Assembly (NCBI GenBank): GCA_051294375.1
Contig: JBJCIZ010000239.1
Span: 1,630,581-1,694,580, forward strand
DNA length: 64,000 nucleotides
Direction: 5' to 3'
Origin: Paraspadella gotoi
Lineage: Eukaryota > Animalia > Chaetognatha
Both the position numbers and the translations under genes were made by a program. Shown in pieces: positions 1 to 64,000 of this stretch (its first letter is position 1; every line of letters begins with the position of its first letter). The notes under the pieces were generated by a model. That model was not told where the DNA came from. It worked only from the letters and a program-made list of their open reading frames with translations, and did no database searches.

Positions 1-3000
1 GCGCTGCGCCTCGTAAGAGTGAATCGCTTTCACGGCTTTCAGCAATTTGTTGGGCTCCACGTAATCTCCGCCCGCGTCGTCGCCTCCGTTTCTCCTCAAC
101 TCGTTCGCCAACGAAACCATTTCTAAGAAAAGATACATTTCTCAGAAATTGGAAAAGATGGCCAACAAAAGAGCATTTCAATTGTTTTACCCGAAATGAC
201 GGGGTACTTGAGCTTCACTTTCTTGTAAAGAGGATGCTTTTGGTAGTACTCGACTAACTCGCAAAGGCTGTCAAAACATGCCGAGCCGATCAGGACATTC
301 TGTTGCCCCATCGGCCCTAGAAAAGAAGCAAAGGAAGGTAAGCGCAATGAATTAAAAACTAAATGAATTACTAAATCGGCTCCATCACTTACCCCTATCA
401 CTTACCCTCGCCCTCAGTTACGATTCCGCAATGATGAATCCTCCCTTCCGCCCGGAAAGAGACCGCGAATGAGTACTTGGGATTCTCCGAGGGCCTGACG
501 AGGAAGGCCCCGTCCCTCCTCACGTTGCCGAGCCAATCCTCTGCGGTGCGACGCATAAGGTCGCGGTGCCACCAGGGACGGTGGTCGGGCGAGACGCGGC
601 GCGGCACGTACTCGCTCAGGATGATTTCCTCTTGGTTCGGGGTCAATAGCCTTGGATAAAAAGTAAAGGTTAATCCGAATCGAGAATCGGGGTTCGAAAG
701 AACAAAGAGAAAGCAACGCCCACCTGTGAGCCCGATAATAATTGACAAGATCCTGGACGTGATCGAACATGACTCGATCGACGAGGTAATACTTGGTGGC
801 GCCGTCTTCGCCCGTCATCGATTTGACGCGCCCGTGTTGCACGCGACCGTTCCACCAGAACGACAACGTATAGTTGCCCACGAATTCGCCTTTTGGATAA
901 TTAAATAATAAAATAATCTAAATCGATTATATATATCAAGACTTCCAGGTTGCGAAGTTTATTTACAGGAGTGGCGCACGAGAAAGGTTCCGTTTCCGTA
1001 TCCAGGCAACGAACCGTAATGCCTCATCAAATCTTGAGCGTCTCTTCGTCCGTCGGGACCGCGAATGGAATCGTGGAACCAAGGCTCGCGGTAGAGGGCT
1101 TCCGTCTGAAATGAAATTTAACGAATTTACATAATATAAATAATGGAACAAACTTGCGAACAAAAGGAGGAAAGAAACAAAGAAAGAAAGCAAAAGAAAA
1201 ACCTGATCTGCGACGCCGTTGTTGTTGTTGTTATCGGCCTCTTCCTCCTCTTCATCGTCCACATCCTTGAAGCAGAGACCCGAGTTAGTGAGCGCGAACT
1301 CATGCGGATGCCAATGATCGAGCAGGGCCTCGAAGTAATGAAGGGTGCCCGTCTTGAGGTGCTCCGAGTTGCCCGCTTTATCCCCGTACGGGCGGAACAT
1401 CAAGGCCTCGGGATCCTCGGGCAGCTTCTTGTGTTTGATGAGGATTTTGCGACGGAGTTGGTTGGGAGAGGGAAGGCTCGTGGCGCTGTGAAGAAGTTTA
1501 TAAAAGTATTTTTACATTTTTACAAAATACTAAACCATTCAAGGTTTTTGTTTCCCACCTCCGGTCGATGGGTTTGTCGAGGAGCATGTCTCCGAACTGA
1601 TCTTTCATGATAGAGACGATCGTCTTTTGTTGGGCAATATCACAGTGGTTTTCTGCGGATAAATAATATTTACTCGTAATGTATCAAATAGTAAATATAA
1701 TCGGATAAATCCTATATCCCCAGTCTCCATTTTTCTTTTCCCCGTTTGCTCGACGTACCGATAGATAGGATGAGCGGAAAGTCGGTAGTTTCGAAGGCGT
1801 GGCGTTTGATCGTGGCGATGACGGGGGAGAAGCTCAAACGGGTCGTCAACGTGAACCTAGAGACCGGGGAAAAAAGTTAGGATAGGTTTATAGGATTCTC
1901 TCAGGCGTCAAAGAGACTGACCCGTGATAAATGTGAGGTTCTCCGTTGGGTCCGTTCCAGCAATCTAACTCGATACAGCGACAGCCCATGCGAAGCGCGC
2001 GGGCGTAGGCGTCGCAAGACGAGGGACTCCGGATCTGATCGCCTTCAAAAATGGAAAAAAAGGGAAAGGGTTATGAAAGAAAAGGAAAAAAGAAAGAAAA
2101 GGAAAAAAGTAAGAAAAGGCTCATTCTCACCGGTGAGGTAAGTGTTGTGGGAGGAAGCGATCCAGTAGTGGGACAAAGGTTGGTTCATGTCCTGAAGACG
2201 CTCCGACTCTTGCGGGTCCAGGAGGGCATTCGACGGCGAATAGAGAAAATCCACAAATTCTAGAAGGACAAGAGAGAGCATTAATTGGGCCTTACCAAAG
2301 AGGTAGATGATGCGGGGTAAGGCGAGAGAGACCGCAATAAACTTACCCTCCAAGGTGAGGTGGGGATCGGTGTTTCGCGATCCCGCGTCGGCGGCGTGTT
2401 TGAGGATGAGGCTCGTGATGTCGTTGAGCGAACGATATTCTTTTTGATCGCTGGATTGGAGGAGGAAAGAGAAAAAATTTGTTAGTACAGGTTTTATAAT
2501 CCAATGATTAATACATTTTTTTCTATCTTAAAACGACTCAACTGTTCGAAAAAGGTTTTGAGCGAGGATCGAGACAAAACGTACGAACACGGGGATTCGT
2601 CGAAAGAAACTTGAGAAAGATCTTCGCAAATATCCTGTAGCGCGTGGATGAGGGAAATCAAATTATAAATTATTACTAAATAAATTAAGAAGTGAAATAA
2701 AATAAAAAAAAGTCATTTAAGATTCAAACCGAGGAAAAGGAGGGCGAATCGGTGCTCGGTGACGACGACTGCGTCACGTAAGACCAGATCGGAGTCTCGC
2801 TCAAGTAGTGAAGGCGGTTGGGGAGAGATTGATCCGTCGATGTCGTTTGTACTAAGACGGTGGAAGGACATTATATCACGTTTCACGGTTAATAATATAA
2901 TTTGAATATGGCAGTGGACCGTAGAAATCATCCCTTTGAGCGAATGTATTTCTTGGTTCGGACACGAATTATAAAAATCCCATGCGCCTGAATCCTTAGG

Positions 3001-4052
3001 CGTCATGATGGTAATAATGTAAAACTAAGGCCGTTTTTGTTTGACAAATAAAACGAAAGAACCATTTTTCGATTTAAATAATGTTTAACATGCCTGTTAT
3101 AACTATAAAAGAACAATACAAAGATAACCTAAAATATTTCACATGAAATGGATATTAACACATCGGTAAAACTAATTTTCCCGGTAAAATCACAACTACA
3201 ACAGTACCTAGGGCACAGCCGCGAAAGAGCCTCTGGTAGAAGCGATGAAATTGCTCCAGGGAGATCCTGCCCCGCGCCTCTGCGTCGACTGCTGCGAACC
3301 GCTGACGCACCTCGTCCCGCGACGGTTTATAGTTGGCGCGCGGCAGCCAAGACTTGAGATCGCGGGAGGACACGCCGCCGTCGGGACCCTGCATCGACGA
3401 GAACTCTTTGAGCAGCCATCGACGAAGCTGGACCGGGTAGGTCGCGGAGCCCGTGTCTCGAGTCAAAAGGGTGAGGCCTGGCGAGGAGAGGGGAGGATAT
3501 AGGTTTTGTGCGTTTGTGAAAGAATGAGAGAGAGAGATTTTGCCAACCTTCGATCCAGTTCTTGACCTCGTTCTTCTTTTCCCTGGCGTCGGCGGGCACC
3601 AGCGCGAGGGCCTTGAGCACAAACTCGTTCCCGTAGAGGATGGTGAAGGCGGCCTCTTCGGGGAGACTCCGAGTGTCGCTGCTCCACTGACGCAACTCTC
3701 GAGATCCCTTTCCCAATCGGAGTTCTTGAATCTCGCGGATGTCGACGGTGCCGGCGATCTTGTCGCCGCCGTCCACGCGGGACCACACCAGTTGGCGCGA
3801 CTCCAGCAGGACCTTTTTATGGAGGAGAGGGAGGATAGTGGGAGAGGCAAGTCGCGATCAGCATTTCCGAAATGAAACTCTCAAACTCACCCTGAAATGA
3901 AACTTTTCCGGACGCCGTCGCAGGGAATACTTGAGGAAGAAGGAGCCAACGACGAGGTTTTGCAAAAGGCTGGCGGCGACGGGGTCGGACAACGACGTCA
4001 CGCGGCTGCTCGTCCGCGTCACGGGCGCGTGAGAGTTGGAGCGCGATTCCAT
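1..4052 (-). CDS. PLCG1: Phospholipase C gamma, multi-exon, 3' part runs off the window start
   Basis: Spliced exons give PH, EF-hand, X-box ([22 protein letters not shown]), split PH, N-SH2 ([19 protein letters not shown]), C-SH2 ([11 protein letters not shown]...[17 protein letters not shown]) and start of SH3. GT-AG introns keep frame. Confidence 0.95.
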
Positions 4053-63265: not shown

Positions 63266-64000
63266 TCAAGTCTTCCCTCCAGCCATGTCTACCAATCGAT
63301 TGGCCTGCTTCCTCGACACCTTTTTCTCATAAGACCCCTCCCGCAGCCTCTTCTCCTTGCTGCAGTGTGGCACGGCGCCGTGCTGCAACTGGAAGGCGCA
63401 GAGAGCGTCGAGCGGTTTCAAGAAGGCGCCGACGACGTCGTCGCGATTCTCGATGACTGAAATGGCGAGCGCCGCCGTCTCCACCGTCGAGAGAGTGTTC
63501 GACGTCGGCTGAGTTCGAATCACGTAGCGGCTCTGTAAGGCGGTGGCGGCGTCGGCTGCGTCCTCGTTCGCGGGGTAATATCGTCTCAAAGTGGGAGAGT
63601 TGGTGAACATGACGCGACGACATCGACGAAGAAAATCGTTTTTCTGATACAAGCCTAAAGCCTGAGGCCAAGTCCCGTCCAAGAGGATCAGGTTAAACGG
63701 ACCTTCGGGTTTGGGAGAAGTTTCTGCGAGAAAAAATTACAAAATCGTTTAATACATATTACATAGACACTAGTTTAAGTATTATTAGCACTTTATAGTA
63801 AGCTTAAAAGTAAGTTTAATGTATTAATTAAACTCTCCTGGATAACAAGATTTAATTACGACTGATTAGTCAAATATTAAACACACAAACAAAATTAGCA
63901 AAACCCAACCAATGCCCGCATGTGGTTACTTGTCTAATGTCTATGTCGTCGCCATTGTGGTCGTCTTTGTCTTTTTGGCCATCGCGTTGATTTCTCAAAT
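63266..64000 (-). CDS. DTWD2: DTW domain protein 2 (tRNA-uridine aminocarboxypropyltransferase), 5' part beyond window end
   Basis: NLILLDGTWPQA, SRYVIRTQP..TLSTVETAALA, LKPLDALCAFQLQHGA. Confidence 0.92.

Follow-up and report, generated by a model that had tools for sequence, protein, structure and literature searches.

Twenty-two unrelated genes on one strand in 64 kb of an arrow worm genome: a possible chain of same-facing operons

What could hold 22 unrelated neighbouring genes of an animal on one and the same strand? The question is raised by a contig of the chaetognath Paraspadella gotoi (GenBank assembly GCA_051294375.1, contig JBJCIZ010000239.1), of which a stretch of 64,000 nucleotides, positions 1,630,581 to 1,694,580 of the forward strand, was analysed; the window below means this whole stretch. 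Scans of open reading frames (ORFs) on both strands place all 22 unrelated genes of the window on the minus strand, head to tail. The prevailing view is that animal gene orientation is near random, with about two genes per same-strand run, and that animal operons are short. The co-orientation seen here is real and far above the animal norm. The favoured explanation, with a probability of roughly 55%, is that the block is a chain of same-facing operons whose precursors would be split by spliced-leader trans-splicing. Chaetognath operons and trans-splicing are already known; what this block adds is a one-way run of such length.

Gene content and strand

Gene models were derived from a coding model trained on the window, the whole of which was also inspected directly; the automatic models were wrong in several exons, and introns were curated by eye. 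On the minus strand 114 hand-picked ORFs were profile-scanned against Pfam, and 19 of the 22 genes meet a gathering cut-off. The remaining three are a sulfotransferase-like gene, supported by Atlas look-alikes at 0.95-0.96 with a Pfam score under the cut-off, and a coiled-coil and a small membrane gene, both supported by spliced ORFs and by the scores of a coding model trained without these two genes. According to that model the minus frame is best for the small membrane gene (75 versus 59 for the best open plus frame) and in three of the four exons of the coiled-coil gene, the short second exon being ambiguous.

The plus strand contains 165 ORFs of at least 70 amino acids (aa), of which 148 were scanned and the other 17 all overlap minus-strand exons. 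A Pfam cut-off is reached by none of the 148, two weak matches (E about 0.008) falling below it. Outside known exons the top plus-strand coding score is 30, and the GC-rich stretch that yields it reaches 31 when read on the minus strand. The longest stretch without coding sequence is 1,899 nt, which makes a small overlooked plus-strand gene unlikely. Scans of the window for tRNA genes and Rfam families were empty, which rules out RNA genes of these kinds within the gaps. The first-pass annotation had already assigned all 22 genes to the minus strand, and this is confirmed, for 19 of them by Pfam cut-off, with zero plus-strand ORFs passing. Plus-strand genes in the larger gaps, the possibility it had raised against its own reading, were looked for by Pfam and coding scores and no candidate emerged. 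Its statement that the genes are not paralogs is borne out by their unrelated families, which also rule out tandem duplication as the cause of the run.

Introns are present in 18 of the 22 genes. From 84 predicted introns, 73 acceptors and 68 donors were retained by eye; the curated GT-AG introns (n=63, median 98 nt) are ordinary cis-introns, and the 73 acceptors read CAG in 50 cases, AAG in 14 and TAG in nine. The features of the window are as follows, from its right end to its left and thus 5′ to 3′ along the minus strand. Names below the level of the Pfam family, apart from ISY1 and RRP12, are our own tentative assignments from sequence features.

63266..64000, minus strand: DTW-domain gene, 3′ part, 5′ end beyond the window (Pfam DTW, 64 bits)
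55887..61366, minus strand: multi-RRM protein gene, stop position approximate (Pfam RRM_1; coding model)
53203..55269, minus strand: POFUT2-like O-fucosyltransferase, 7 exons (Pfam O-FucT; coding model)
52816..52825, no strand: 10-N scaffold gap with a 171-nt duplicated flank (52582-52752 and 52872-53042, 93%)
48020..52116, minus strand: RRP12, 3 exons (Pfam RRP12_HEAT; homologues)
45975..47762, minus strand: sulfotransferase-like gene, first exon boundary uncertain (Atlas, Pfam below cut-off)
42546..45356, minus strand: G-protein alpha subunit, G-alpha (Pfam G-alpha)
39048..40841, minus strand: ICMT (Pfam ICMT)
37031..38725, minus strand: lysine-rich coiled-coil gene, 4 exons, no family above cut-off (coding model)
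35739..36732, minus strand: MRPL9, bL9m (Pfam)
34526..35228, minus strand: small single-pass membrane protein gene (coding model)
32347..32871, minus strand: TMEM243 (DUF2678), 3 exons (Pfam; coding model)
32294..32346, minus strand: 53-nt TMEM243-B3GALNT2 gap, no scoring acceptor, no AATAAA
30302..32293, minus strand: B3GALNT2-like galactosyltransferase-family gene (Pfam Galactosyl_T; homologues)
23708..29940, minus strand: CDK12-like kinase, 12 exons (Pfam Pkinase; coding model)
22292..23125, minus strand: MIT-domain gene, single exon, lineage-restricted (Pfam MIT; relatives at 47-58%)
21324..22177, minus strand: BLOC1S3 (Pfam; coding model)
18728..21016, minus strand: TMED2-like p24 gene (Pfam EMP24_GP25L)
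17502..18194, minus strand: NIFK-like RRM gene, single exon (Pfam RRM_1)
13306..17088, minus strand: PP2A B56 regulatory subunit (Pfam B56)
11069..12124, minus strand: ISY1, single exon (Pfam Isy1; homologues)
10362..10841, minus strand: CutA, single exon (Pfam CutA1)
5222..10183, minus strand: PPM1G-like PP2C phosphatase, 12 exons (Pfam PP2C; coding model)
1..4052, minus strand: phospholipase C gamma, PLC-gamma, 5′ part, 3′ part beyond the window (Pfam PI-PLC-X, SH2)

Some details of single genes and introns stand apart from the question of orientation. The membrane segment of the small single-pass protein is presumably NCAM-like. The MIT-domain gene has 11 relatives among 1.84 billion representatives, calpain-7 being the sole named one of the eight looked up. 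The first coding intron of the multi-RRM gene (at about 59976) has an apparent GC donor when read by eye. A 252-nt repeat, likely a small mobile element, occurs in a B56 intron (15576-15827) and a CDK12 intron (24193-24444) at 97% identity, and a 116-nt part of it lies inverted in the POFUT2-RRP12 gap (53043-53158). A short motif with a ATTTGCAT/ATTTACAT core is present in seven copies, all intronic and in both orientations (6837, 8805, 9754, 25741, 28028, 44566, 54839), one pair of which matches over 152 nt at 82%. The 1.3-kb TMED2 intron contains direct and inverted repeats of 116-173 nt, nested in one another (19220-20018), that resemble a foldback element.

Gaps, orientation and the favoured explanation

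The 21 stop-to-ATG gaps measure 53, 114, 178, 227, 257, 298, 307, 322, 361, 413, 510, 533, 582, 617, 618, 1086, 1169, 1181, 1654, 1704 and 1899 nt, with a median of 510 nt and six exceeding 1 kb. The ten shortest, all given exactly by the first-pass annotation, must fit both a 3′ and a 5′ untranslated region (UTR). The probability of a 22-gene run on one strand is 4.8e-7 at 50% co-orientation, in agreement with the 2^-21 quoted earlier for independent orientation, and 5.6e-4 at 70%. Across 525 animal genomes same-strand runs average about two genes, and in trypanosomatids the mean is about 30 (10.64898/2026.07.29.740908). When genes are joined into units by gap length, the window holds 12 units (500-nt rule) or seven (1-kb rule), all on one strand; random orientation of the units would yield such a run with a probability of 2^-11 or 2^-6.

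A similar layout is found in a second arrow worm. Table S5 of PMC2481426 describes the 158-kb Spadella bacterial artificial chromosome (BAC) 35A21 in 24 rows, 23 of them oriented, 19 plus and four minus. Every one of the 14 rows bearing a host-gene name is plus (99-119,826), across gaps of 8-18 kb. Three of the four minus rows are labelled as transposons and the fourth shares its gene number with one of them; not counted here were a tyrosine recombinase row and four plus rows with a transposon label or no label. Joined by the 1-kb rule, the host genes fall into eight units that share one strand (2^-7 under random orientation). The authors themselves remarked only that several BAC genes cluster and share orientation (PMC2481426). 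Orientation thus seems to be correlated beyond single operons, since randomly oriented units give 2^-6 to 2^-11 in the window and BAC 35A21 matches.

In the favoured explanation promoters would lie mainly in the six gaps above 1 kb, giving units of about two, three, four, eight and three genes plus two cut-off genes at the ends. The leader would be added to downstream genes at pyrimidine-rich AG sites that lie unpaired close to the ATG, upstream 3′ ends would form together with leader addition, and cis-introns would be removed as usual. Uniform orientation beyond single operons could be kept by an antisense cost: read-through into a co-oriented gene would be rescued by trans-splicing, and an inverted gene would suffer antisense transcription. 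This last part is hypothesis only.

Host and related systems

Quick single-gene trees were built from a 16-row RRP12 set rooted on coral and from a 38-row set. In the 16-row tree a long stem carries the window and two relatives; it lies within the protostomes (99), is sister to a group of molluscs and a nemertean (91), beside rather than within them, and falls outside an arthropod clade supported at 100. The 38-row tree places the window outside both the arthropods and the mollusc/nemertean group, its place being otherwise unsettled. Grouping RRP12 with insects or with a tunicate was rejected (p=0.003 and p=0.03), as was a copepod host, ISY1 not grouping with transcripts that bear the calanoid copepod leader (leader per PMC4664967). 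The closest relatives are environmental, with identities of 71-74% for ISY1 and 57-63% for RRP12; named animals are lower, at up to 41% for RRP12 and at 338 bits versus 516-522 bits for ISY1. No named chaetognath protein is among the matches listed for the ISY1, RRP12 and B3GALNT2-like searches. A metagenome scan with the ISY1 alignment returned 47 loci; close relatives contributed none of them, the best match reaching 69-70% across no more than the first 175 residues, and scans of viral (0/74) and prokaryote (0/281) data found nothing. The observed/expected CpG ratio of coding sequence is 1.31, a lack of depletion that is expected because gene-body methylation is lacking in P. gotoi (PMC12460157), though not specific to Chaetognatha. 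The tree position of RRP12 fits Chaetognatha, which is probably the phylum of the host. The first-pass annotation had likewise proposed serial operons or long directional clusters that keep their cis-introns, and that part is favoured here too; the arthropod-like genome in which it placed them is not supported by the RRP12 position, the rejected insect grouping or the distance of ISY1 from the copepod-leader transcripts.

The nearest known counterparts are the spliced-leader operons of Spadella cephaloptera and P. gotoi. They are alike in their unrelated housekeeping genes, head-to-tail order, short gaps and cis-introns, and also in tree position, undepleted genic CpG and the one-strand layout of the Spadella BAC. 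In P. gotoi about half of the genes (10,197 of 21,072) are trans-spliced and 18% are in operons, which by a rule of gaps under 250 bp number 2,151 with 5,061 genes (PMC12460157). Tight spacing is documented in S. cephaloptera, where the RPS14 poly(A) site and the PCNA acceptor are three bases apart (PMC2481426). The reported operons differ in averaging 2.4 genes, reaching nine and being depleted of signalling genes, whereas the block has at least 22 genes with signalling genes among them; leader addition is known for the former and is a prediction for the block.

Other systems share single features. The directional gene clusters of kinetoplastids, which are marked by a single start site, trans-splicing of every gene and strand-switch regions, are likewise long one-strand runs of unrelated genes (at least 22 here versus a mean of about 30), a likeness of gene layout alone, and trypanosomatid genes are largely intronless, in contrast to the intron-bearing genes here (10.64898/2026.07.29.740908). 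Operons in tunicates (Ciona, Oikopleura) and C. elegans have similarly short distances between unrelated co-oriented genes. However, those of Ciona hold six or seven genes at most (PMC7986045), those of Oikopleura are short (PMC11067885), and the units of C. elegans are randomly oriented relative to each other (10.64898/2026.07.29.740908). Continuous transcription across neighbouring co-linear genes outside operons has been described in C. elegans (10.1101/817130).

The ISY1 searches also brought up other transcripts. Two forms are seen among those with the calanoid copepod leader: in L005, L006, L009, L015, L021 and L026 the leader is followed by an ORF of 96-103 aa, 9-138 nt and ISY1, whereas in L007, L010, L018 and L019 it sits directly on ISY1. 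The upstream ORF is Rpp14/Pop5-like, above the cut-off in four of the five loci scanned; with ISY1 it may form a copepod operon whose mRNAs occur in both dicistronic and resolved form. The word 'operon' does not occur in PMC4664967. Two further transcripts, L027 and L028, begin with a common 5′ stretch, and L027 branches far from the window. This stretch is presumably the Oikopleura leader.

Gap signals, rival explanations and meaning

Signals in the gaps give a mixed picture. Pyrimidine-rich YAG within 120 nt of the ATG, a motif chosen post hoc, is present in nine of 21 genes versus 4.8 in shuffles (p=0.013) and versus 12 of 62 intron windows (p=0.035). The majority read TAG, as in ISY1, where one lies 5 nt upstream of the ATG; other predicted leader sites are 13 nt upstream of the ATG in BLOC1S3, 14 nt in POFUT2 and 32 nt in RRP12. 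Strong donors occur in just four of the 21 gaps, and most of these YAG acceptors are therefore unpaired; the post hoc motif lends weak support to unpaired acceptors. The sense strand holds more T than A in 19 of 21 gaps, and likewise in 52 of 63 introns. AATAAA follows the stop within 400 nt in seven of 21 cases versus 5.1 in shuffles (P=0.23), which is no enrichment of a signal that may not be the one used by this lineage, and is found on the antisense strand in 15 of 21. An E2F motif is present in one of 21 gaps and TATAAA in nine, neither count being informative. The most frequent of the published Spadella leaders has no match in the window at up to three mismatches, as expected if leader genes are located elsewhere.

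The last TMEM243 exon plus the 53-nt gap, 188 nt in all (32294-32481), has no ATG in any frame, as is also true of 18 of 102 coding windows, so that with a leader spliced to the last TMEM243 acceptor the first reading frame of the message would be that of B3GALNT2. It is possible that this acceptor serves both cis- and trans-splicing, or that a bicistronic TMEM243-B3GALNT2 mRNA is made instead.

Several results weigh against a chain of operons in a chaetognath. The planned acceptor test, with a weight matrix built from the 73 cis acceptors at three widths, found no excess upstream of the ATGs over dinucleotide shuffles (p=0.83, 0.55, 0.61) or intron interiors (p=0.26, 0.14, 0.81); only the reverse strand was outscored, at two of the three widths. 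The post hoc YAG motif is missing within 120 nt of the ATG in 12 of 21 genes, and no acceptor scores in the 53-nt gap. Compared with introns, the gaps show an excess of CG-rich words (CGCG 50 versus 12), in keeping with internal promoters. The 10-N gap, overlooked by the first-pass annotation, interrupts the window and divides the run into 19 and three genes, so that the gap-free run is only 19 genes in 52.8 kb. A one-strand run of at least 22 genes stands against the nine-gene maximum of the reported P. gotoi operons, which are also depleted of signalling genes (PMC12460157), unlike the block with its G-alpha, PLC-gamma and PP2A-B56. BAC 35A21 was selected for its operon, and its table is limited to predictions with a SwissProt match. 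The trees contained no chaetognath sequence, and the RRP12 set had no rotifers, gnathostomulids, gastrotrichs, bryozoans, flatworms, priapulids, nematodes or crustaceans; RRP12 as sister to all arthropods was not rejected (p=0.17).

The strongest rival, on the whole unlikely, is that the entire block is part of one polycistronic unit of the trypanosome type, with a promoter outside the window, trans-splicing of all genes and mostly post-transcriptional control. It agrees with the absence of any strand switch in 64 kb or gap above 1.9 kb, with the lack of AATAAA enrichment after stops, a weak result for the reason given above, with the low odds (2^-11 or 2^-6) of 12 or seven randomly oriented units on one strand and with the single-stranded Spadella BAC, whose 8-18 kb gaps do not break the pattern. 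CG-rich clusters, however, occur in most long gaps and may mark promoters, which makes the six gaps of 1.1-1.9 kb candidate promoter sites; furthermore, trans-splicing reaches only about half of P. gotoi genes, and the genome is reported to have open chromatin with conserved factor motifs (PMC12460157).

Genes with a promoter and terminator each, co-oriented for some other reason such as collision avoidance and with trans-splicing as no organising part, are a still less probable explanation. The negative acceptor test and the CG-rich words in the gaps speak for it, as do likely 5′-UTR cis-introns in two genes, the multi-RRM gene (donors at -124/-109 and an acceptor at -45 in the donor scan) and G-alpha (GTGAG at -149). 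But gaps of 53, 114 and 178 nt are very tight for two UTRs and a promoter, and runs of about two genes over 525 animal genomes show no such general force (10.64898/2026.07.29.740908). A chance extreme of a very large scan, extended by the scaffold join or by missed plus-strand genes, is quite improbable: the roughly 250,000 windows scanned give 250,000 x 4.8e-7 = 0.12 as an upper bound and the 10-N gap sits within the run, but few windows contain 22 animal genes, 19 of the genes here are unbroken by the scaffold gap, the plus strand yielded no candidate, and the short gaps and the BAC 35A21 pattern are separate signals.

Beyond the chain of operons favoured for this window, arrow worm genomes might tentatively be pictured as one-way blocks of 60-120 kb or more, with tens of intron-rich genes, few promoters and trans-splicing, in which the published operons would be the tightest parts. 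Such long one-way blocks were not found described for chaetognaths or other animals in the openly accessible literature, where an earlier description is nevertheless possible. The word 'strand' is absent from the main text and three supplements of PMC12460157, as are 'operon' and 'trans-splic' from the Spadella genome preprint (10.1101/2025.01.31.635879).

If true, this would be an animal phylum with a kinetoplastid-like genome architecture. Runs of at least 20 intron-containing genes would show that trans-splicing can push an animal genome toward the trypanosome plan with cis-splicing and complex development retained, and would bear on what trans-splicing is for. Such an organisation could also help to explain the compact regulatory landscape and the missing topologically associating domains reported for P. 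gotoi (PMC12460157).

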